Of a stretch of 13,558 nucleotides of DNA, positions 1,358 through 13,558 are shown in pieces; position 1 is the stretch's first letter, and each line of letters opens with the position of its first letter. The notes beneath the pieces are model-generated. The model had not been told where the DNA came from. It ran no database searches and was given only the letters and a program-made list of their open reading frames with translations. The stretch lies in the IMG/VR virus record IMGVR_UViG_2529292874_000020; one strand, written 5' to 3'. This DNA is from a virus (lineage: Duplodnaviria > Heunggongvirae > Uroviricota > Caudoviricetes). A program made the position numbers and the translations under genes.

Positions 1358-1549
1358 GAGCGTCGTTCGCTAATCATGGTCGCCGCCACTATAGCTGGTG
1401 GGCAACGACCGGGGTTGAACATTAAAAATCAGCCTGACTCGGGATCAGTTTTTGCCAGATAGCTGAAACGTATTTTGCCTGGTAACGGGCGTCATCAAGT
1501 GCATTATGGCGCTCACCTTCGAATGGAATAGCCGTTCTGGCATCGAAGT

Positions 1550-2548
1550 CTATGGCTTTCCCCAGCTCAACGATTGTGCGTACATCGCGATCGTTGTAGT
1601 AACGCCACGGGCAGGGGTCCCCTGCCGTTCGTATGAACGGCGCAAAATCGTGTTGTCGAAGTTGGCTCCATTTCCCCAGACATGAACAAAAAATTCACCG
1701 GAGTTTTCGTCGATAAATTCCCGCAATTGTAACAGTGCATCATCTAACGGGATTTCATCGGTCATAATGGCAGATTGCGCTTCGCGTGATTGCTTAAGCC
1801 ACCATTTCATGGTGTCCCGATCAATGACTCCGCCAGCAGTATCCAGATCGATAGTCTTACTAAATTCCGGTCCCATATCTCCGGTTTGCGGATCGAAAAA
1901 TATTGCACCTATTGAGATGATCGGGGCATCAGGATTTTTTCCCATGGTTTCAAGGTCGATCATTAGATGAATCCCCGCTCTGCTGGTGGATGTGAGATTA
2001 TGATGACCGTTCGCCTTAATTAAGGGATCTGACGCCTCGCCAGTTTCACTATCGCTGGCATGATGCTGATTGCCGCCAGTGTTCTCCTTGTGCTGATGTG
2101 CAGTACCTTCCATTTCCTCCGGATCATTTTCCTGAACTTCAGGCTGATTCTCTCCATCGAATATTTCCTGGTATGTTGCGTCGCCCATCACCGCGCCACA
2201 ATCAGGGCAGTTGCCGCCGCCGGTCTGACCGCAGGCGGTGCAGACTTTTTCCGGTTCCTGTTGCGCTACTGGTTCAGGTTGTTTCGTTTCTGGCTCGTTT
2301 TGTAACGCATTTGGACTGTTTTGTTCCGTTTCTTGCTGGTTCTGGTTCACAGAATCGCGGGTTTCAATCCCCTTCACCCATTTCGGATCATTCGGGTCGC
2401 TAATCCCTTCAACAAATTCACCACGTGATGCAGCAAGCAATTTATCGGCGTCAGGCTGGCTGATATTGGCTGCCTGCATAATTTTGTTTACTTCGTCAGC
2501 GGTAACTTTTACCGGCTCTGGTTGTTCTGAATCTTCAGCGGTATCCAC
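1550..2548 (-). CDS. Exonuclease fragment (RecE-like linker plus DEDDh Exo I/II motifs; C-terminus lost to frameshift) as an ORF caller would report it
   Basis: 332-aa ORF from the supplied track, starting on GTG. Contains MIDLETMG and NGANFDNTIL. The expected H-x4-D motif is absent from this frame but present in the adjacent frame downstream. Confidence 0.6.
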   Translation of the reverse strand: MDTAEDSEQPEPVKVTADEVNKIMQAANISQPDADKLLAASRGEFVEGISDPNDPKWVKGIETRDSVNQNQQETEQNSPNALQNEPETKQPEPVAQQEPEKVCTACGQTGGGNCPDCGAVMGDATYQEIFDGENQPEVQENDPEEMEGTAHQHKENTGGNQHHASDSETGEASDPLIKANGHHNLTSTSRAGIHLMIDLETMGKNPDAPIISIGAIFFDPQTGDMGPEFSKTIDLDTAGGVIDRDTMKWWLKQSREAQSAIMTDEIPLDDALLQLREFIDENSGEFFVHVWGNGANFDNTILRRSYERQGTPARGVTTTIAMYAQSLSWGKP

Positions 2549-3297
2549 ATTTTGCGGTAAGCCCGTGTATGTGCCATTTTTTCGGGCAAAATATTCTTCT
2601 TTTGTGATTTCAGTACCGCCGGCAGCCAGCGCCTTGTCCAGACCAGAAAGTTTGTTTGCCCTGCCGTATTTTTCGCCTCCTTATCGGTGAAGAGGAAGTA
2701 GAACGGCCCCTCACGCTCTACAGATGGTTCGACTTCCACTTTGCATTCGGTTTTTTCGTTGTCCGGAATTGCCGTTTCCACTGCATCAGTTTCTGGTACT
2801 GGCGACGAGAGAGTGTCAGTTGCGCTCTGATTTGTTCCTTCATCTTCAAACACGCCCTTTGTAGTCAGGTATTCAGTAATGTATTTGTTCAGTGCCACAG
2901 GGTCTTTGTGAATATCGATCGGACGTTCGCGAACAAGGCCAAAAATAGTCTGACGGTCATAGCCAAGTGCTTCGGGCTGTTTGCGCATTGATGCTGAGAT
3001 ACGCTTCCAGTCTTCGCGATCCTTGTCGATAACCTCATTTGTCGCCCAGCGATGGATGGTACCGTCAATGTTTCCTGCATCCACATCACCGGGCCAGAGG
3101 GCGCAGGCCAGTTCGTCATCCAGTGTTTTCCATGTCTGCTTATATTCGCGACGAATGACTGCAGTGACAGGGGGGGTTTTTTCAGCAGCGTTTTCAGTGT
3201 TCTGTTGGTTGACTCTGGCGCGGGCGAGATCAACAACAGACGTGTATTTTCCGGTTTCCTTGCGTTCACCTTCGCGACGTTTTTTCCAGATGCGCAT
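2509..3297 (-). CDS. Fragment of the same disrupted RecE-like gene (middle segment)
   Basis: 262-aa ORF, protein-like over its first ~200 aa. Its last ~55 aa (Trp/Arg-rich) look out of frame, while the exonuclease frame is open and protein-like from 2680 downward. The other frame over 2889-3297 is compositionally junk. Confidence 0.5.
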   Translation of the reverse strand: MRIWKKRREGERKETGKYTSVVDLARARVNQQNTENAAEKTPPVTAVIRREYKQTWKTLDDELACALWPGDVDAGNIDGTIHRWATNEVIDKDREDWKRISASMRKQPEALGYDRQTIFGLVRERPIDIHKDPVALNKYITEYLTTKGVFEDEGTNQSATDTLSSPVPETDAVETAIPDNEKTECKVEVEPSVEREGPFYFLFTDKEAKNTAGQTNFLVWTRRWLPAVLKSQKKNILPEKMAHTRAYRKMWIPLKIQNNQSR

Positions 3298-3548
3298 TTC
3301 TGCCTGAATTTCAGGCCATTTGCACCAGGCTTACATTTATGCTTAACCCACCCGATGGCATGCAGCTTAAGCTCCGGATACATGGCGTTAACTTCTGGCA
3401 TTTTCATCAACGCTTCAACGATATGTCCGTCGAATGTTGCCATGTCTTCCTGCAACAATTCCTGTGCGCTAATCACCATATCAACGGTGATGTTTTCACA
3501 TGTGTCGAACTTAACCATGACAGCGTTCTGTACTTCAGGGGCAGCTTG

Positions 3549-3869
3549 TCAAAAGTTGACGTTCATCGGATCGGATTCAGTCTCGACCGGGACAAAGGAA
3601 GCAGACTCCTCATCCCAGCGGTTTTCCTGCATATATTCAGCATCCCAGGAATCGAGGGCAGGGCGGGGTATACCGGGTTTATCCTCGCAAACAAGAAATT
3701 TATAAGCGCAGTCCTGAGCAGCCGGATAATGCTCCAGGAATTGCCAGTGAAATTTTGCGCGGGCGCGACGTTCATCACCGGCTTCAATGGCAGTGGCTAC
3801 AGCGACTGCACCTTCTTCCTTTATTGCCTGTTCGTCCGGAATGGCGGCGCAAATAAAGACTTTACTCAT
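3549..3869 (-). CDS. Hypothetical protein; likely N-terminal segment of the RecE-like gene (ydfE-like position)
   Basis: 106-aa ORF in the same frame as the ORF starting at 3518, separated from it only by a TGA at 3549-3551. No convincing Shine-Dalgarno precedes the ATG at 3518. Confidence 0.45.
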   Translation of the reverse strand: MSKVFICAAIPDEQAIKEEGAVAVATAIEAGDERRARAKFHWQFLEHYPAAQDCAYKFLVCEDKPGIPRPALDSWDAEYMQENRWDEESASFVPVETESDPMNVNF

Positions 3870-4338: not shown

Positions 4339-4508
4339 TATCGCGTCCTCAACAATGAATTTTGTGATGCGGTGCCTGGTGCCTCCAGGTGACGTTAACC
4401 AGTTAACAATTAACGCCGGATACAGAGAATCCACCCATAACACTGTTTTTAGGTTTTAACTGTTCCGCGTGCGCTCAGCCGCATTCACCGCATCACAAAA
4501 TTCACTTT

Positions 4509-4566
4509 AAAAAGGGCGGCAGAGCAGTCACGGAGTAAAACTGATACCGCCAAACGTCACCAGAAA
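4509..4566 (-). ncRNA. dicF: DicF small RNA (ftsZ-targeting sRNA of the dicB operon)
   Basis: The reverse complement of 4509-4566 reads TTTCTGGTGACGTTTGGCGGTATCAGTTTTACTCCGTGACTGCTCTGCCGCCCTTTTT, which matches the DicF sequence as I recall it, including the GC-rich 3' stem and U-run. Orientation and position (between the ydfC-like gene and dicB) fit. Confidence 0.7.
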
Positions 4567-4898
4567 ATTGATAACAGAGGGCGTTGCAGCGGGGTTGTCA
4601 CTTAAGCGTATGGTCAACCTGACAACCCGGTGTCCTCAACGGGGGAAGGAATAACCCCGCCATACTTACCGCCGCGCCATTTCGCGGATTGCCACAACCG
4701 GAAGCGCACGGTCGACGAAAATTTAACGACAGGCTATCTATGAACCAGCTACCTCGCCGTGCGCTTTCGCGTTATGTCTGACTTTTCAGGGAAATATCCT
4801 TTCAGTAAACTGTCAGTGCCGGATGCTCACCCGTGTCCGGCGCACGCACTCCACCTCACCCGTGGAGAACTCCTTAATTACCAACCTCAGGAGGGTGA

Positions 4899-5132
4899 AT
4901 GTTAAAATCAACTCTTATTGCTAAATGCCTTTATCAAAATCGCATGGTAAGCAGCATTTCAATAGGCGAGTCTGCAGTTAAAAGTATTTTCGAAGAGTAC
5001 TTTCCCGGGCATGATTTTAATAAATGGAATACCAAATTACCGCCAGCAGTTTCAACGCGTATTCTGAAAGCAACCGAAAGAGCAAGTACAATTCGCGTTA
5101 ACTATTTCATTAAAGATTTGTGGGATCTTTGA
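4899..5132 (+). CDS. Hypothetical 77-aa protein (AT-rich cassette gene A)
   Basis: ATG at 4899 preceded by AGGAGGG with a 5-6 nt spacer. Visibly AT-rich coding sequence. Converges on the next gene and overlaps it by 23 bp. Confidence 0.5.
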   Translation: MLKSTLIAKCLYQNRMVSSISIGESAVKSIFEEYFPGHDFNKWNTKLPPAVSTRILKATERASTIRVNYFIKDLWDL

Positions 5133-5517
5133 TATCCACAGAGCCTAAAGTATGTGCATATGGATGTGCTATTATGCGCCCTCGCAGATTTGCATCATTT
5201 TCTAAATTCACTGAACGAAACAGGGCATCAACAAGGCTCTGTACAATGCAAAGGCAATCGAAGACTGTCGCCGTTTCTGTTTTGATTGATGAAAGAACAT
5301 GGCCATTCACGCAAACAGAAATTACCCGTTTATTAACATCGCTTTCCTGCTTTTGATTATCAGAACCATATAGCCCAGAAAAAGCATTGCGCACATTACG
5401 AACCATATTATCGATGGTTTCTTTTTCTGCGGTACTAAGGTCAAGAGTAGCCAGTTGTGAACGAACTATATTCGATGCCATTTCCTGTAATGGCGTTGGT
5501 AAATCTTTAAATTCCAT
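5110..5517 (-). CDS. Hypothetical 135-aa protein (AT-rich cassette gene B)
   Basis: ORF on the early-left strand, 22 nt downstream of the ydfC-like gene. No recognisable motif and a weak RBS. AT-rich relative to neighbours. Confidence 0.5.
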   Translation of the reverse strand: MEFKDLPTPLQEMASNIVRSQLATLDLSTAEKETIDNMVRNVRNAFSGLYGSDNQKQESDVNKRVISVCVNGHVLSSIKTETATVFDCLCIVQSLVDALFRSVNLENDANLRGRIIAHPYAHTLGSVDIKDPTNL

Positions 5518-6133: not shown

Positions 6134-6268
6134 TGCTTCTTTGCCGATCCCGGGATGCCTTCCATTCTGATGTTTGACTTCGCCCACTGAGAAACCCTCT
6201 GCTTCCCCTTAACGCCGGGTAGCGGAACTGTTTGCTGAGAACACCGTGCGGTGTCTTGATGAGTAGAA

Positions 6269-6878: not shown

Positions 6879-7106
6879 ATGTTGAAAATTGATGCTATAG
6901 CGTTTTTTGGCAGCAAAACAAAGCTTGCCAATGTCGCAGGAGTTAGGCTGGCAAGCGTTGCTGCATGGGGGGAACTGGTTCCTGAAGGTCGCGCGATGCG
7001 CCTGCAAGAGGCATCCGGCGGGGAACTTCAGTACGACCCCAAAGTTTATGACGAATATCGTAAGGCAAAGCGGGCGGGGCGGTTGAACAATGAAAATCAC
7101 CACTGA
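6879..7106 (+). CDS. dicC: DicC-like Cro-type regulator
   Basis: 75-aa ORF divergent from dicA, with AAGGGG 6 nt before the ATG. MLKIDAIAFFGSKTKLA...GRAMRLQEASGGELQYDPKVY matches my recollection of DicC. Confidence 0.8.
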   Translation: MLKIDAIAFFGSKTKLANVAGVRLASVAAWGELVPEGRAMRLQEASGGELQYDPKVYDEYRKAKRAGRLNNENHH

Positions 7107-7641
7107 ACAGGTTTGTGAGGCTCTGGATACCTGGGTATGCCGACCAGGAATGACACAGGAGCAGGCGACGATATTAATCACGGAAGCATTCTGGGCTCTG
7201 AAAGAACGCCCGAACATCGATGTTCAACGCGTCACGTTTAATGATGGCGAGGTTGATCAACGGGCGCTGGGCGTTAACCGGGTGAAGATATTCGAACGCT
7301 GGAAAGCTATCGACACCAGAGATAAGCGTGACAAATTCACGGCGCTGATTCCGGCAATTATGGAGGCTATCCGGATCAGCGATTTCAGATTGTATTGTGA
7401 AATTACTGACGGAAAAAGCATTACGTACATGATCGCCGGGTTAAACAAAGAATATGGCGATGTGGTGGAGTCCGGGCTGCTTTTTGCGGATCCAGTTGTT
7501 GTGGAACGTGAGACTGACGAGCTTATAGAAAAAGCTATTGCTTTCAAGCACGCGTATCGTCAGCAATACCAATATTACTTTGCAGATAAACAAATGTCTG
7601 CCAGGGGGGCGTATGAGTATCGATGCACTACGATGGGCTAA
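7090..7641 (+). CDS. YdaT-like protein (prophage CII-like/YdaT family, function uncertain)
   Basis: 183-aa ORF whose start overlaps the dicC stop (ATGA-type coupling) and whose end overlaps the replication gene start. Position after the cro-like gene mirrors ydaS-ydaT in Rac. Family assignment is by recollection only. Confidence 0.55.
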   Translation: MKITTEQVCEALDTWVCRPGMTQEQATILITEAFWALKERPNIDVQRVTFNDGEVDQRALGVNRVKIFERWKAIDTRDKRDKFTALIPAIMEAIRISDFRLYCEITDGKSITYMIAGLNKEYGDVVESGLLFADPVVVERETDELIEKAIAFKHAYRQQYQYYFADKQMSARGAYEYRCTTMG

Positions 7642-8650
7642 AAAGGTGAAAACCGGCAGTTCATCCAGTAAGTCAGTATTGACCTGGCTTGCTGATATGT
7701 GCGGTGCCGATTTGTGTGCATACCCGTCTGTATCTGCACTGGCAGAAGTAACGGAACTGAACAAAAAGACTGTGCAGGACAGCTTACGACACCTGATGGA
7801 GATTGGGTTAATTGTTGATACCGGTGAGAGAAAAGGCAGAACAAAGCAAATTGTGGTGTACCGACTTATCGGTGTAGAAGAAAGTGTTGCCGAGCCTGAA
7901 TACACCCAAAAACGGGAGTCTTTAAAGGTGGGTAAAATTGGTGCTGTTAATAAAAACAGTACCGAAAATGGTTATGTTTCAGCACAAAACAGACCCAAAA
8001 ACAGAACTCTTAGCTGCATGGAAAATAACCAAAGACACCCAAATTTTCCATCAAAGACACCCAAAAACGGATCACGGAACCCAAAGGAACCCAAAGATCT
8101 AAACCCCACACATAACGCACGCGAGAGTGCTCCGACCAGTGAGCAGGAAGTTTTGTCGTTACAGGCAGCCCCCCCTGTATTCCTGTATGGCCTGAGCGAA
8201 CCCATCGGAAAATTCCCGATGAGCGATAGCTGGTATCCGTCACGGGATTTTCGACGACGGGCTGCGTTGTGGGGGATGGCTTTGCCGGAGACAGAGTTTA
8301 CACCTGCTGAGCTTGCCGCATTCCGGGATTACTGGATGGCGGAGGGGAAGGTTTTCACGCAGGTTCAGTGGGAGCAGAAATTTGCCCGTCACGTGCAGCA
8401 CGTCAGGGCACAGGTAAAACCAGTCAGCAAGGGGGTAAGCCATGCAGCACCAGGTGGCACCGCATCACGGGCAGTTCAGGAAATTCGGGCAGCACGTGAA
8501 CAGTGGGAACGTGAAAACGGATTTATCAGCAACGGAAACGGCCTGGAAGCTGTGGGAACTTATGGGGGAGGTGTATTCGAACCGCTGGACCCAGAAGAAC
8601 GGGGCTGCGCCGTCGAAGCTCTGGATTGCTCAGATTGGCGCGATGACTGA
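7613..8650 (+). CDS. Replication initiation protein (N-terminal HTH domain, C-terminal DnaT-like domain)
   Basis: Likely start is the ATG at 7613 (MSIDALRWAKK...), preceded by AGGGGGG; the track ORF starts 25 codons earlier. The C-terminal segment WYPSRDFRRRAALWGMALPETEFTPAELAAFRDYWMAEGKVFTQVQWEQKFARHVQ resembles the DnaT C-terminal domain. Internal iteron-like repeats. The 3' end overlaps the next gene by 209 nt. Confidence 0.7.
   Translation: MSIDALRWAKKVKTGSSSSKSVLTWLADMCGADLCAYPSVSALAEVTELNKKTVQDSLRHLMEIGLIVDTGERKGRTKQIVVYRLIGVEESVAEPEYTQKRESLKVGKIGAVNKNSTENGYVSAQNRPKNRTLSCMENNQRHPNFPSKTPKNGSRNPKEPKDLNPTHNARESAPTSEQEVLSLQAAPPVFLYGLSEPIGKFPMSDSWYPSRDFRRRAALWGMALPETEFTPAELAAFRDYWMAEGKVFTQVQWEQKFARHVQHVRAQVKPVSKGVSHAAPGGTASRAVQEIRAAREQWERENGFISNGNGLEAVGTYGGGVFEPLDPEERGCAVEALDCSDWRDD
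7990..8097. repeat. Iteron-like direct repeats (ACCCAAA core) inside the replication initiator gene; candidate prophage origin
   Basis: AAAGACACCCAAA is repeated exactly at 8031-8043 and 8054-8066. GAACCCAAAG occurs in tandem at 8077-8096. A further ACAGACCCAAAAACAG copy sits at 7990-8005. The repeats encode a low-complexity P/K/N-rich linker, as with the lambda ori inside O. Confidence 0.45.
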
Positions 8651-9104
8651 ACAGCAAATCCGGCAGGTCTGCCGTCAGTGCATGGACCGCTGCCGGGCGG
8701 GTGAAACGTGGCCTCCGGATCTGGCTGAGTTTGTGGCGTTGATTTCGGAGAGCGGGGCAAATCCATTTGGCCTGACGGTGGATGCCGTGATGGAGGAGTA
8801 CCGTCGCTGGAGGAATGAATCCTGGCGGTACGACGGGAGTGATAAGTACCCGTGGTCTCAGCCTGTGCTGTATCACATTTGCCTCGAGATGCGTTCAAAG
8901 GGGATTGAGCGCCAGATGACCGAAGGGGAATTAAAACGGCTTGCAGAACGGCAACTGACGAAATGGGCAAAGCATGTTAGTAACGGCCTGAGCGTTCCGC
9001 CAGTCCGGCGACAACTGGCAGCACCCAAACGCCCGCCAGGGCCAACGCCAATTGAGTTGCTGAAACAGGAATATGAACGCCGGAAAGCGGCTGGTTTTGT
9101 CTGA
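8442..9104 (+). CDS. Replication protein, lambda P N-terminal-domain-like
   Basis: 220-aa ORF with ATG at 8442 preceded by AAGGGGG. The segment LWIAQIGAMTEQQIRQVCRQCMDRCRAGETWPPDLAEFVALIS aligns by eye with the lambda P N-terminal region (EQVNAGMRVARRQNRPFLPSPGQFVAWC). Confidence 0.6.
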   Translation: MQHQVAPHHGQFRKFGQHVNSGNVKTDLSATETAWKLWELMGEVYSNRWTQKNGAAPSKLWIAQIGAMTEQQIRQVCRQCMDRCRAGETWPPDLAEFVALISESGANPFGLTVDAVMEEYRRWRNESWRYDGSDKYPWSQPVLYHICLEMRSKGIERQMTEGELKRLAERQLTKWAKHVSNGLSVPPVRRQLAAPKRPPGPTPIELLKQEYERRKAAGFV

Positions 9105-9873: not shown

Positions 9874-10002
9874 GCGGATGGTGCAGGCCTGAAATCATGA
9901 TACTAACAATGAAGGTAAAATGCATCGGCAGTCTGATTGGTCGTAGTGAGGCGGCGGTCAGGATGAAAGCCCAGGTTAAGGGAATAAGCCTGATTCTGCG
10001 GG

Positions 10003-10470
10003 GTGATTTTCACCAGTCAACAAAATATCCGTAGCGCGATAACGGTCAAAAATTATGGCGCTGACACTTTTGTGCCACTGGAGATGACTGTACCTAAGTT
10101 CAGGGGAGAAGAACACGTCCGGTGGGATGGTCGGGCCAGATTTAAAGGGCAGGTCATGGCTCCAGCCTGTACGCTGGCAATGGAGGCTGCCTGGCGGGAA
10201 ATTGATATGGGAACCACGCCACTCAGGGATTTACTGCCGGTCCAGAGAATAAATTCCTGTTACGGTTACACCACTGTGATCTTGCAAGTGCAGGAAAGTA
10301 GGTCTACACGGTAACGCGAGTGCGTGTAACTTTTGATGTCATTCCCGTAGAAACACCGGACAAATTTTCGCTGACAGGTCATGCAGAAGGTATAAATCTG
10401 CAGATTATGGACAATTACGGATATCCGGCAAGAGCCGGAAAAAGCATGCCGCCTCTAATTCTCAGTGGAA
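10003..10470 (+). pseudogene. Possible decayed fimbrial-subunit-like gene remnant
   Basis: Two adjacent frames give pilin-like text: RFKGQVMAPACTL...(28 aa)...C, resembling the conserved FKGxVVxxxC Cys pair of major fimbrial subunits, and later GINLQIMDNYGYPARAG, resembling the C-terminal VGVQILD-type strand. There is no signal peptide or intact ORF. Confidence 0.25.
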
Positions 10471-10540
10471 GATGGACTTGATTATACTCATTGCATTGTC
10501 AGAAATAGTTATCCATTAAAGGCTGGCTATTCCAAACAGG

Positions 10541-10568
10541 ATGTTGATTACAAAAATGTAATCAACAT
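10541..10568. promoter_or_regulatory. 28-bp near-perfect palindrome (12-bp arms, AAAA spacer) in the AT-rich leader of the ModA-like gene; candidate operator
   Basis: ATGTTGATTACA-AAAA-TGTAATCAACAT, about 165 bp upstream of the ATG at 10733, followed by a TATAAT hexamer at 10595-10600. Confidence 0.35.
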
Positions 10569-10732
10569 GTAAGGTTTATACTCTTCAATATGCGTATAAT
10601 TTTCCTTATTTTGTTGACTTTAAATAACAAGCTATGCACGAGGTAAAGTCGGATAAGTTTATCTGGATGTAATATATATTATTTGTAGTGTTTATAACTT
10701 TATTTCATGATAACCAATAAAAGGAGTTTTTT

Positions 10733-11491
10733 ATGAGGAACATAATGGCAGGTTTTTTAATATTCCTGTCTTCTGCTGCTTATGCTGATATCAATCTGTA
10801 TGGTCCTGGTGGCCCGCATACAGCCTTGCTTGATGCAGCCAAACTTTATGCCGAAAAAACAGGTATTATAGTGAACGTTCATTACGGCCCACAGAACAAA
10901 TGGAATGAAGATGCCAAAAAAAATGCAGATATCTTGTTTGGCGCATCAGAACAATCTGCTCTGGCTATCATTCGGGACCATAAAGACAGCTTCAGTGAAA
11001 AAGATATTCAGCCTCTTTATCTGCGAAAAAGTATTTTACTGGTAAAGAAAGGTAATCCTAAAAATATCCGGAGTATTGACGACCTGACCAGACCTGGGAT
11101 TGGCGTAATTGTTAATGATGGTGGTGGTACCAGTAATACATCAGGCACTGGCGTCTGGGAAGATATTGCCGGACGTAAAGGGAATATAGAAACTGTCGCC
11201 GCAATCCGAAAAAATATTATTTTATATGCGCCCAATAGCGGAACTGCACGTAAGGCTCTTGAGAATCAGCCTGGAGCAGATGTCTGGATAACCTGGGCTG
11301 ACTGGGCAGCCAGTAATCCAGAAATTGGTGATGTCGTGGAAATAGCGCCAGACTACGTGATATGGCGTGATATGAACATTACAGTACGTCAGGATGCAAA
11401 TGATGAAACCCGTCGATTTGCAGAATGGCTACAAACCGATGAAGCGGCGCCTGCATTCAAAAAATATGGCTGGACCAGGAAAGGCACTTGA
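10733..11491 (+). CDS. Orphan periplasmic substrate-binding protein, ModA/TupA-like (PBP type II fold), with signal peptide
   Basis: 252-aa ORF with AAGGAG RBS. N-terminal signal peptide MRNIMAGFLIFLSSAAYA. The mature protein matches the ModA-type oxyanion-binding layout by eye (ADILFGASEQ vs ModA PADLFISADQ; C-terminal FKKYGW vs ModA FKRYGF). No permease or ATPase genes are adjacent. The leader is AT-rich. Confidence 0.75.
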   Translation: MRNIMAGFLIFLSSAAYADINLYGPGGPHTALLDAAKLYAEKTGIIVNVHYGPQNKWNEDAKKNADILFGASEQSALAIIRDHKDSFSEKDIQPLYLRKSILLVKKGNPKNIRSIDDLTRPGIGVIVNDGGGTSNTSGTGVWEDIAGRKGNIETVAAIRKNIILYAPNSGTARKALENQPGADVWITWADWAASNPEIGDVVEIAPDYVIWRDMNITVRQDANDETRRFAEWLQTDEAAPAFKKYGWTRKGT

Positions 11492-11496
11492 CATCC

Positions 11497-11523
11497 TCGT
11501 CCTTCAGGACGTGGATTCTTTTT
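11497..11523 (+). terminator. Weak hairpin plus T-run after the ModA-like gene
   Basis: CGTCC-ttca-GGACG stem-loop at 11498-11511, followed by a TTCTTTTT tract to 11523. Short stem, so low confidence. Confidence 0.3.
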
Positions 11524-11610
11524 CCGGATGCCGCGCCAGCGGCATGTAGGGGCAGCTCACAAAACGGAAAAAATTGTACGCTAAGCCTCGCCAGGTGAAC
11601 TGAATTCATT

Positions 11611-11634
11611 CCGATATGGGAATTCCCATATCGG
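11611..11634. repeat. Perfect 24-bp palindrome CCGATATGGG-AATT-CCCATATCGG in the hok upstream region
   Basis: Exact inverted repeat read directly from the sequence, embedded in a wider imperfect dyad (GAATTCATT...). Function unknown: mRNA fold-back element or protein-binding site. Confidence 0.5.
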
Positions 11635-11826
11635 GCGAAAACGGTTTGCTGTAACGGCAGAGTTAAGTAGGATTGCTGCGGGTGCTTGAGGCTATCTGCC
11701 TCGGGCATGAACACCAACGGCAGATAGATAAAAGCCCCACCCGACTATAAATCGAAGTGAGGCCCCTATATGCTCGTCACATATAGATTGCCTCTTACGG
11801 ACCGAAAGGTCAAGGAGAAGCAGGCT

Positions 11827-11982
11827 ATGAAGCAGCAAAAGGCGATGTTAATCGCCCTGATCGTCATCTGTTTAATCGTCATAGTGACGGCACTGGTAAC
11901 GAGGAAAGACCTCTGCGAGGTACGAATCCGAACCGGCCAGACGGAGGTCGCTGTCTTCACAGCTTACGAACCTGAGGAGTAA
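11827..11982 (+). CDS. hokD: Hok-family type I toxin, HokD/RelF-like
   Basis: 51-aa ORF MKQQKAMLIALIVICLIVIVTALVTRKDLCEVRIRTGQTEVAVFTAYEPEE with a single transmembrane segment and the conserved Hok C-terminus. AAGGAG RBS 8 nt upstream. The track ORF 11770-11982 is the same frame with a 19-codon upstream extension. Confidence 0.85.
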   Translation: MKQQKAMLIALIVICLIVIVTALVTRKDLCEVRIRTGQTEVAVFTAYEPEE

Positions 11983-12051
11983 GAGACCAGGCGGGGGAGA
12001 AATCCCTCGCCACCTCTGATGTGTCAGGCATCCTCAACGCACCCGCACTTA

Positions 12052-12080
12052 ACCCGCTTCGGCGGGTTTTTGTTTTTATT
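12052..12080 (+). terminator. Rho-independent terminator downstream of hok
   Basis: ACCCGC-TTCG-GCGGGT stem with a UUCG tetraloop at 12052-12067, followed by TTTTTGTTTTTATTTT. Confidence 0.8.
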
Positions 12081-12202
12081 TTCAACGCGTTTGAAGTTCC
12101 GGACGGCGCCGGAATAGAATCAAAAATACTTAAGTAGCGCGCAGGGAGAAGAGGGATGGACCCCGAACAGGGGAGTGCTATTTATCTGGAAGGATTCTGT
12201 TG

Positions 12203-12460
12203 ATGAGAATCGAAGAATTACGTGAAATTTTTAGTGAAGATGGCCTCTATACTGTGCGCGTTGAGAAGGGCGCTATTGTCAGCCACTGCCGTATTAAATG
12301 TTTACAGTCTCAACAAAGGAAGAGTGGAGCTGCGTTAATTCATTTTGTGGATGGGCTTGTGACGGATGGTTTTATTTTGCGTGCAAATGAATTTGTCACA
12401 TCGTTGCCGTCTCTGAAAGAAGCTGGGATTAAGGCTGGTTTTTCTGCTTTTGAAGATTAG
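12203..12460 (+). CDS. Hypothetical 85-aa protein (Rem-like by position next to hokD)
   Basis: ATG at 12203 (track starts on TTG at 12200), with GGAAGGA upstream. It occupies the position rem holds downstream of hokD in Qin. No sequence-level confirmation. Confidence 0.5.
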   Translation: MRIEELREIFSEDGLYTVRVEKGAIVSHCRIKCLQSQQRKSGAALIHFVDGLVTDGFILRANEFVTSLPSLKEAGIKAGFSAFED

Positions 12461-12529
12461 TGAATTCATCTACAATTCAGCGCAGGGCTGAACCCCTGTT
12501 GAGTAACACTGTGCCACCGGAGAAAGCCG

Positions 12530-12809: not shown

Positions 12810-13244
12810 GTGCGGGTATTACTTCGACCTGTTCCGGTACCGGAACTTGGGTTGGTGGTCCTTAAACCAGGCCGTGAATCCATGCAGGTATTCCATAACC
12901 CTCGAGTGCTTGTGGAGCCGGAGCCGAAAAGCATGCGCGGTCTGCCGTCCGGCATCGTACCTGCCGTTCACCAGCCGCTGGCGGAAGATAAATCACTACT
13001 GCCATTTTTCAGCGATGAGCGGGTGATCCGTGCTGCGGGTGGCGCTGGTGCACTGTCTGACTGGTTATTACGTCACGTGAAATCCTGCCAGTGGCCTCAT
13101 GGTGATTATCATCACAGCGAAACCGTCATTCACCGTTACGGTACCGGCGCGATGGTGTTGTGCTGGCACTGCGACAACCAGCTGCGTGACCAGACATCCG
13201 AATCACTGAGCAACTTGCTCAACAGAATCTGGCCGCCTGGATGA
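12810..13244 (+). CDS. Hypothetical 144-aa protein with Cys/His cluster (possible metal-binding; DUF968/YdfU-like is a guess)
   Basis: GTG start at 12810 with GGAGG 4 nt upstream. Contains CQWPHGDYHHSETVIHRYGTGAMVLCWHCDN. Its stop overlaps the next start (ATGA). Confidence 0.45.
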   Translation: MRVLLRPVPVPELGLVVLKPGRESMQVFHNPRVLVEPEPKSMRGLPSGIVPAVHQPLAEDKSLLPFFSDERVIRAAGGAGALSDWLLRHVKSCQWPHGDYHHSETVIHRYGTGAMVLCWHCDNQLRDQTSESLSNLLNRIWPPG

Positions 13245-13558
13245 TTGACATCATCCGTCACGCAATGAATGGCGCACAGGAGCGTGAATTATCTCTGGCT
13301 GAATTATCCTGGTGGGCGGTCCGCAATCAGGTGGCGGACGCGCTACCGGAAGCGGTATTACGTCGTTCGCTGGGGTTGCGTGCGGAAAAAATCCGCTCCG
13401 TATACCGTGAAAGCGACATCGTACCGGGAGAACAGACCGCCACCAGCATACTGAAGCAGCGCACAAAAAATATTGCGCTACCGCCTCACACCCACCAGCA
13501 ACAGAACCCACCACAGGAAAAGACGGTGGTCAGCATTGCCGTTGATCCGGAGTCTCCG
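13241..13558 (+). CDS. Hypothetical protein, 5' partial (runs off the window end)
   Basis: ATG at 13241 overlapping the upstream stop. The frame is open for 106 codons to the window edge (MIDIIRHAMNGAQERELSLAELSWWAV...). Not in the supplied track because it has no stop in the window. Confidence 0.4.
   Translation, partial: MIDIIRHAMNGAQERELSLAELSWWAVRNQVADALPEAVLRRSLGLRAEKIRSVYRESDIVPGEQTATSILKQRTKNIALPPHTHQQQNPPQEKTVVSIAVDPESP

Follow-up and report, generated by a model that had tools for sequence, protein, structure and literature searches.

A frameshifted exonuclease gene in the ompW prophage of Escherichia coli O157:H7 strain G5101 is probably a consensus of collapsed prophage repeats

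We compared a disrupted gene in a 13,558-nucleotide stretch of Escherichia coli O157:H7 DNA (the window) with the protein families that it most resembles. Its closest known relatives are the exonucleases of other ompW prophages, namely WP_000048549.1 from strain FRIK944 and WP_000048551.1 from PV15-279 (both 823 residues) and WP_000048548.1 from O55:H7 CB9615 (816 residues). These proteins form a lambdoid-prophage family that corresponds to PHROG 2082 ('exonuclease / 3'-5' exoribonuclease'), with the phrog_2082 match spanning positions 1-823 of 823. Of 5426 complete E. coli genomes, 4803 (~89%) have a gene of this 816- or 823-residue type, and O157:H7 genomes carry 5-7 copies that are 88-96% identical to each other. 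More than 7900 cluster representatives of the family were found at E<=1e-50 in a protein database clustered at 90% identity, and PF27430, PF27432 and PF16473 occur together in 120 of the 120 family matches listed. In ompW prophages the gene is located in the early-left operon, between xis and DUF1482/dicB. The initial annotation of this DNA regarded the domain architecture as unusual, a view that is contradicted by the size of PHROG 2082 and its presence in most complete E. coli genomes. The gene is common and already annotated, and its architecture here is nothing new.

The center of these proteins resembles RecE of the Rac prophage, which is encoded at the same early-left prophage position. 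About 150 central residues, including a CxxC...CxxC motif, are 72% identical to Rac-SA53 RecE (residues 474-624 in BLASTP, with another weak stretch at residues 262-336), in agreement with the RecE-like central region recognized in the initial annotation. In the window, this RecE-homologous center maps to 2021..2452 on the minus strand (BLASTP, NF007259), and its CxxC...CxxC motif CTACGQTGGGNCPDCG starts at 2242. The RecE-like center and the shared position together account for the frequent annotation of the gene as 'exodeoxyribonuclease VIII'. We rejected this identity, because the NCBIfam RecE model NF007259 scores 275 bits, far below its cutoff of 1269, and aligns residues 452-626 with model positions 445-603 of 877 only. 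Rac contains a recE-recT pair, whereas the exonuclease gene has no adjacent recT: none is annotated or appears in the Pfam lists for the window and the homologous loci, where xis and then int are found instead. A further difference to Rac RecE is that a DEDDh domain replaces the C-terminal PD-(D/E)xK nuclease. No PD-(D/E)xK domain was found at the C terminus by Pfam, which reported PF16473 and PF00929 only.

The C-terminal domain is related to the Rv2179c-like/DnaQ-like DEDDh exonucleases (PF16473, with a weak match to PF00929, RNase_T). In an intact homologue the C-terminal 172 residues match the full PF16473 profile (225.7 bits, cutoff 27; residues 642-813, profile positions 2-177 of 177), and the DLET, NGANFD and H-x4-D motifs are present. 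Unlike in Rv2179c-like exonucleases, the domain is fused in the prophage protein to a ~640-residue phage-specific N-terminal and central region. The sole sequence match in the PDB is weak (8KEL, E=1e-6). Judged by profile and motifs, the C terminus is a predicted DEDDh (DnaQ-like) 3'-5' exonuclease domain. We found no experimentally defined role for the intact family, which combines the DEDDh domain and the RecE-like center without an annealase partner.

Inactivated members of the same family occur in defective prophages. The PPompW copy has a 4-bp deletion, and one of the PV15-279 copies is truncated by an IS3-family element. We take ydfE of the K-12 Qin prophage to be another inactivated copy. 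Such copies show that loss of the exonuclease gene is tolerated, and each has one clean lesion that recurs in related records. Unlike the PPompW and PV15-279 copies, the gene in the window has multiple indels that are locked to paralogue-specific SNPs, and it is represented by one draft contig.

The window corresponds to the final 13.6 kb of contig AETX01000174.1 in the draft assembly of E. coli O157:H7 str. G5101, presumably a product of 454 sequencing and the Newbler assembler. It includes a prophage integrated beside ompW, and coordinate arithmetic places the window end at the contig end, inside this prophage. The disrupted exonuclease copy spans 1422..3869 on the minus strand and can be recognized by its YdfE_N domain, its RecE-like center and its Rv2179c-like DEDDh domain. 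It shares with the ompW-prophage exonuclease genes the locus, the neighbors int, xis, DUF1482 and dicB, and the domain set. At the nucleotide level, it is 95.4-96.5% identical to these genes (95.9% to the intact 2472-bp O157:H7 genes in a database search) and colinear with them once repaired, but unlike them it contains five 1-nt indels and unique patches of paralogue-type SNPs. GenBank annotates 1422-3869 as three coding sequences, EFX07217.1, EFX07216.1 and EFX07215.1 of G5101, which match three ORF fragments of the window exactly. Each of these fragment proteins is found on a single 108,938-bp contig only. At the ompW locus of PV15-279, the closest closed relative, which shares the beta-glucuronidase-positive lineage of G5101, the 2472-bp gene is intact. 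In public G5101 data no stx genes are detectable, though the strain was reported to be stx1+/stx2+ (PMC6256406), which indicates further prophage gaps in this draft.

The repaired translation is colinear from end to end with WP_000048549.1 of FRIK944 and with the 816-residue protein of O55:H7 CB9615, and its domain order is that of the family. The four reading segments that the initial annotation had joined into one ~815-codon gene thus indeed align with single intact proteins of 823 and 816 residues. That annotation had also proposed three homopolymer frameshifts and a nonsense codon. Alignment of 1422-3869 with intact alleles instead yields five indels of 1 nt each and an in-frame gap of 21 bp. 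None of the indels extends the G4 run or lies in the T5 run at 2669-2673, the T6 run at 3280-3285 or the GG at 3314-3315, where repairs had been suggested. One-base repairs against intact homologues do restore a single colinear gene, but the number, the positions and the nature of the lesions are different. The 21-bp gap relative to the 823-residue alleles lies between CGGAACA direct repeats (2321..2329, minus strand; allele comparison). We rejected it as a lesion, as it equals a natural in-frame length variant of 816 residues: in O55:H7 CB9615, the ortholog from the ompW prophage has 2451 bp (816 residues) and is annotated as intact, and many 816-residue proteins are present in the database.

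The first reading segment in the ORF list comprises the N-terminal 106 codons (3549..3869, minus strand) and ends in a TGA at 3549-3551. Its protein contains Pfam YdfE_N (PF27430) and is found in exactly this form on one contig only. Alignment to the paralogues reveals that the in-frame TGA is created by a compensated +1/-1 indel pair (3541..3557, minus strand). The insertion at ~3555-3557 changes GTCGCTTTT to GTCAACTTTT, the deletion at ~3541 changes CTGGCCCC to CTGCCCC, and the TGA falls into the 14-nt stretch flanked by the two. Over 3541-3557 the window reads GTCAACTTTTGACAAGCTGCCCC, compared with GTCGCTTTTGACAAGCTGGCCCC in the ompW allele, GTCAATTTTGACAAGCTGTCCCC in paralogue 1 and GTCACTTTTGACAACCTAGCCCC in paralogue 3. 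Both indels are located at paralogue-variable bases, and the window combines the paralogue strings into a hybrid. We considered the TGA as a nonsense substitution and rejected this, as the gapped alignment requires 2 indels and ~2 mismatches and the ungapped alignment ~11 mismatches in 15 nt. The supposed nonsense codon is thus a by-product of the +1/-1 pair.

Two further deletions also coincide with paralogue SNPs in the alignment. One of them, at ~3322 (3321..3323, minus strand), converts GCCAAA to GCAAA; the ompW allele has GTGCCAAA at this position and paralogue 1 GCGCTAAA, as opposed to GTG-CAAA in the window. The other one, at ~2678 (2677..2679, minus strand), removes the lone T of GGA(T)GGC, where the ompW allele reads AAGGATGGCGAA, paralogue 1 AAGGGCGGGGAA and the window AAGGA-GGCGAA. 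Here, the SNPs that flank the deletion alternate between ompW and paralogue 1 types.

The fifth 1-nt indel, at ~1618, is the loss of the lone T of GGGGA(T)CCCC. This frameshift splits the DEDDh domain, which maps to 1450..1970 on the minus strand by its PF16473 match and the frames of its motifs: Exo II (NGANFD, from 1672) lies on one side of the break, and Exo III (HNALDDA, from 1508) lies on the other. All three Exo motifs are nevertheless present as noted in the initial annotation, with MIDLETMG and NGANFDNTIL in one frame and HNALDDA in another, and its assignment of a DEDDh rather than a PD-(D/E)xK nuclease agrees with the PF16473 match. Because of the frameshift, PF16473 covers only profile positions 2-123 of 177 in the 332-residue fragment of the window (141.7 bits). 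There is no SNP between the two main paralogues at ~1618, and the O55 allele has GGGTATCCCC at a distance of two bases. The deletion is contained in a 17-nt palindrome, GGCAGGGG-T-CCCCTGCC (1610..1626), which had been pointed out before and is indeed present in the sequence; intact alleles have the 18-nt palindrome GGCAGGGGATCCCCTGCC in its place. We rejected the palindrome as a special element, because it is neither statistically remarkable nor conserved in the Evi and O55 alleles. The window contains three palindromes with 8-nt arms compared with 0.5 expected, and at least one is found in 39% of Markov resamples. Either an ordinary sequencing error or a genuine mutation in the palindrome center could account for the indel at ~1618.

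We analyzed how the differences are distributed over the window. There are no mismatches to the O157:H7 ompW prophage at 1-1000, 5001-5500, 7001-8000 and 10001-12500, and all divergence and all indels relative to this prophage are confined to a few patches. The PV15-279 paralogues are located at 1149117-1151588, 2029904-2032375 and 2128057-2129379 of AP018488. The ompW allele and a paralogue from another PV15-279 prophage are distinguished by 310 sites; at 246 of these the window agrees with the ompW allele and at 63 with the paralogue. The allele type switches 32 times across the exonuclease gene, and some of the tracts consist of a single SNP. Among the 86 differences from the ompW allele, 56 recur in a phage-allele panel, and sites unlike both main paralogues match further alleles of the panel or the third PV15-279 paralogue, which is truncated by an IS. 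Four of the five genic 1-nt indels lie exactly on paralogue-variable bases and produce hybrid strings, such as GTCAACTTTT from GTCGCTTTT, GTCAATTTT and GTCACTTTT. Four or more of five indels would fall on such bases by chance with P≈0.006. The same signature is found outside the exonuclease gene. The DUF968 gene (12810..13558, plus strand), which runs to the window and contig end, is frameshifted at 13207 in the alignment, again on a paralogue SNP (ompW allele CACTCGAGC, paralogue 2 CACTGGATC, window CACT-GAGC), and the signature is also seen in intergenic DNA at 4777.

This mosaic is absent from complete E. coli genomes, in which the best match to the whole gene is 95.9% identical, that to its central 951 bp 94.5% and that to a 241-bp patch 97.1%. 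No closer intact donor of the whole or the central gene was found among complete E. coli genomes and phage records, with best identities of 95.9%, 94.5% and 94.1%. In a large protein database, where clustering at 90% identity precludes allele-level resolution, the best representative is only 92% identical. A paralogue-type patch at gene positions 766-956 contains ~20 nucleotide differences and 6 amino-acid changes, as concluded from a by-eye comparison of translations. Most substitutions in this patch are synonymous, which fits a real functional donor allele and not random error or decay. The paralogue-type substitutions thus look selected.

Together, the coincidence of indels with paralogue-specific SNPs (four of five genic indels and the DUF968 indel) within a mosaic of paralogues is indicative of a chimeric consensus in which prophage repeats were collapsed. 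It is thus probable that the window contains a normal, widespread prophage exonuclease gene, whose frameshifts and stop are an artefact of such a consensus and not biological. Reads from several near-identical prophage copies would have been merged into one consensus in the G5101 draft. Where the copies differ by substitution, the consensus would have taken one allele or the other, generating a fine-scale mosaic. At some variant sites both variant bases may have been dropped, leaving a deletion, and at others bases from both alleles may have been kept, leaving an insertion. The outcome would be the five 1-nt indels in the exonuclease gene and the one in DUF968. The exact behavior of the consensus is assumed here, as averaging two alleles need not mechanically lose a base. 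From the sequence comparisons, we infer that the consensus step of a collapsed repeat caused the lesions and that the real G5101 gene is likely intact.

An alternative that we consider unlikely is a genuine pseudogene, in which many short gene conversions with paralogous prophage copies were accompanied or followed by five 1-nt indels in a decaying cryptic-prophage gene. The lesions do stand in the sequence as deposited, O157 prophage paralogues do recombine, as is evident from patchy differences between the ompW alleles of FRIK944, PV15-279 and O55:H7, and the gene is truly inactivated by the deletion in PPompW and by the IS3-family insertion in PV15-279. Real frameshifts would however be expected to be random with respect to paralogue SNPs, yet four out of five genic ones coincide with them, as does the one in DUF968. 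Locally, the strings represent either the union or the intersection of alleles, which neither point mutation nor mismatch repair would yield, and 32 switches in 2.4 kb, some with single-SNP tracts, would be extreme for gene conversion. Lesions and mosaic are seen in no other genome, and the closest closed relative is intact. Also improbable is a reading in which both mosaic and frameshifts are real, with dozens of micro-conversion tracts derived from sister prophages and indels at the conversion junctions. If true, this would mean error-prone template-switching recombination between co-resident prophages.

Finally, it is very improbable that the lesions are simple homopolymer-length sequencing errors, or the result of slipped-strand mutation, in an otherwise correctly assembled single-copy gene: two classic homopolymer length errors do occur in intergenic DNA (C4 to C5 at 4645, GGG to GG at 4887) and two of the deletions in the gene reduce a 2-base run by one base (CC to C, GG to G), but none of the five genic indels lies inside a run of at least 3 bases, two drop a lone T, the one insertion extends no run, the T5 run at 2669-2673, the T6 run at 3280-3285 and the GG at 3314-3315 do not differ from those in intact alleles, and 86 substitutions, most of them paralogue-matching, would be left unaccounted for. 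The doubt about sequence quality raised in the initial annotation was thus reasonable, but homopolymer miscalls do not explain the evidence, and neither does the slipped-strand decay it had offered as an alternative, as the indels coincide with SNPs that distinguish the paralogues and lie within a mosaic of them.

If the gene is a consensus of collapsed repeats, as we favor, it illustrates that in old drafts of prophage-rich genomes, such as those of O157:H7, a repeated phage gene that looks like a pseudogene can turn out to be a chimeric consensus. Such chimeras may be scored as decay or 'repaired' at the nearest homopolymer, which would result in wrong proteins and inflated pseudogene counts.

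We compared the minus-strand prophage exonuclease gene at 1422-3869 with the intact 2472-bp genes annotated "exonuclease" that match this region, and placed its lesions by alignment to intact alleles. Relative to these, the gene shows a 21-bp gap and five indels of one base each. With the gene of the prophage integrated beside ompW in O157:H7 (the ompW allele) as reference, one base is gained at ~3556 (GTCGCTTTT to GTCAACTTTT), and one is lost at each of ~3541 (CTGGCCCC to CTGCCCC), ~3322 (GCCAAA to GCAAA), ~2678 (GGATGGC to GGA-GGC) and ~1618 (GGGGATCCCC to GGGGA-CCCC). The initial annotation had recognized a single broken gene whose product has a RecE-like center and a DEDDh domain, which stands (the gene has ~816 codons); its lesion details do not. 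It had placed the frame junctions at homopolymers, and none of the five indels aligns to the proposed runs or to any run of three or more identical bases. The TGA at 3549-3551 is not a nonsense substitution: it falls inside the 14-nt stretch separating the ~3556 insertion from the ~3541 deletion and arises as a side effect of this compensated frameshift pair. The 21-bp gap (window 2321-2329), bounded by CGGAACA direct repeats, falls within a low-complexity linker rich in Q, E and N and is a widespread, natural in-frame length variant (816 versus 823 aa). Exonuclease forms of 816 aa are common in the protein database, and the orthologous ompW-prophage gene of O55:H7 CB9615 (2451 bp, 816 aa) is annotated as intact.

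Among the contigs of public collections, only AETX01000174.1 (108,938 bp; assembly GCA_000187285.4) carries the 106-aa N-terminal ORF (3552-3869, minus strand). All three ORF fragments of the gene are deposited proteins of E. coli O157:H7 str. G5101 (EFX07217.1, EFX07216.1 and EFX07215.1), and the 262-aa fragment forms a singleton protein cluster. By coordinate arithmetic, window position 13558 is the last base or two of this contig, which therefore breaks within the prophage. Over its whole length, the window shares 98.1% identity with the ompW-adjacent lambdoid prophage of typical O157:H7 strains, with the gene order int, xis, exonuclease, DUF1482, dicB and, further on, cI/cro, DnaT-like, P, paa, hokD and DUF968. 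The AcfC-family adhesin Paa (252-aa ORF, 10733-11491, plus strand) is virulence-associated prophage cargo; in the reference prophage, a fimbrial-protein pseudogene, annotated as carrying a frameshift and an internal stop, comes before paa.

Every substitution and indel relative to the O157:H7 ompW prophage falls in one of a few patches, and the rest of the window matches it without mismatch. The gene has 86 differences from the ompW allele, 56 of them shared with alleles in a panel. These differences are non-random. At gene positions 766-956 they form a tight cluster that fully matches the paralogous exonuclease of another prophage in O157:H7 PV15-279. Of the 310 sites separating these two paralogues, 246 carry the ompW-type base in the window and 63 the paralogue-type base, with 32 allele switches and shortest tracts of a single SNP. 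Some leftover sites, including that of the +1 indel, match other alleles such as the third, IS-truncated PV15-279 paralogue. The mosaic is absent from complete E. coli genomes, where the gene reaches at best 95.9% identity, its central 951 bp 94.5% and a 241-bp patch 97.1%; the seven mismatches of that patch are flanking ompW-type sites.

Four of the five genic indels fall exactly on bases differing among paralogues (chance of at least four among five random indels, about 0.006); the cause initially proposed, homopolymer errors or slippage, does not hold for the genic indels. At the four sites the window sequence is a hybrid: GCC and GCT yield GC, CTGG and CTGT yield CTG, GGATGGCG and GGGCGGGG yield GGA-GGCG, and GC, AA and AC yield AAC. 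The ~1618 indel lies off any SNP between the sampled paralogues, with the O55 allele differing two bases away, and may be either a real mutation or an ordinary error. It sits at the center of a palindrome that has 18 nt in intact alleles (GGCAGGGGATCCCCTGCC); the initial annotation had correctly spotted the 17-nt form of the window at its first junction. The palindrome itself is not remarkable: not every allele conserves it, and 39% of random window resamples hold one with 8-nt arms. Two more perfect 8-nt-arm palindromes without spacer lie at 11615 and 12831, making three observed in the window versus about 0.5 expected.

The same signature extends beyond the gene. DUF968 (12810-13558, plus strand) is frameshifted at 13207 by a 1-nt deletion on a paralogue SNP (CACTCGAGC and CACTGGATC to CACT-GAGC), and over its last ~570 bp the window follows the DUF968 copy of a different prophage (98.2% identity) rather than that of the ompW prophage. 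Small indels cluster in a paralogue-type patch at 4452-4887 (intergenic/dicB upstream), and an intergenic indel at 4777 is on a paralogue SNP (AGAGC and AGGGC to AGA-C). Classic homopolymer length changes are found at 4645 (C4 to C5) and 4887 (GGG to GG). Single-base insertions relative to the O157 ompW prophage at 6179 (T to TT) and 9138 (A to AA), each with a SNP a few bases off, may be the same artefact. Over DnaT-like and replication protein P (8001-9000), the otherwise identical prophage diverges in a patch with 48 mismatches; a 3-bp in-frame deletion is present at 8443, and both genes remain intact (345 and 153 aa).

In this old draft assembly, the breaks most likely reflect a chimeric consensus of collapsed prophage paralogues; we infer the collapse from the patchy divergence, the paralogue mosaic, the indels on paralogue SNPs and their recurrence beyond the gene. 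Reads of several 88-96% identical copies would have been co-assembled, and substitutions between copies treated as paired insertions and deletions. Where no variant base won, both would be lost; where both were retained, one base would be gained; the majority base elsewhere would create the mosaic. The G5101 draft (Rump et al. 2011, J Bacteriol 193:2058) was reportedly produced by 454 pyrosequencing, and a flow-space consensus would give such an outcome.

Real gene conversion and real inactivation of the exonuclease gene do occur in other strains, so that a genuine mosaic pseudogene keeps a small probability here. The mosaic is unique to the draft, and relatives and literature agree with a chimeric consensus. 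At the ompW-prophage locus, the gene is intact in PV15-279, the closest closed relative and a member of the same beta-glucuronidase-positive lineage. A published comparison could not detect stx genes in public G5101 data, though the strain is reported as stx-positive (PMC6256406), a further sign of poor handling of prophage repeats in this draft. Many "exonuclease, partial" database entries stop at contig edges, and the gene is a routine assembly breakpoint. The third PV15-279 copy (2128057-2130641; L017 8058-10642) is a clean case of real inactivation, an IS3-family insertion cutting the gene after 1323 bp; the adjacent dicB and DUF1482 encode the same proteins as in the ompW prophage. The PPompW prophage orthologue in other EHEC strains (Stx2_14040, L009 101-2568) is annotated as frameshifted, with a 4-bp deletion.

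Of 5426 complete E. coli genomes, 4803 have a match to the gene (median two copies per genome, up to 10), and several temperate phages also match the region. The intact 823-aa homologue contains a full-length C-terminal Pfam Rv2179c-like 3'-5' exoribonuclease (DEDDh) domain (aa 642-813, 225.7 bits) and matches PHROG 2082 ("exonuclease") end to end. It matches the RecE equivalog model NF007259 only partially (aa 452-626, 275 bits versus a cutoff of 1269); BLASTP gave 72% identity to Rac RecE over aa 474-624, a stretch with a CxxC...CxxC motif, and no convincing similarity outside it. The domains had thus been read correctly. Rac has a recE-recT pair, whereas no recT lies downstream of the window exonuclease. 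The CxxC-x8-CxxC motif (CTACGQTGGGNCPDCG, coding strand, 2195-2242), possibly a zinc ribbon, is kept in this family and in Rac RecE and sits in the sole region common to both. Contrary to the initial claim, the architecture is not unusual: database hits at E<=1e-50 include more than 7900 cluster representatives, and all 120 listed, mostly 816-aa or 823-aa proteins, share the same three Pfam domains. Our literature search found no experimental study of this exonuclease. The family is already known and abundant, and the broken copy is of interest mainly for its lesson about method; position and domain content indicate that the exonuclease is most likely an early-left-operon DNA-processing enzyme with 3'-5' polarity.
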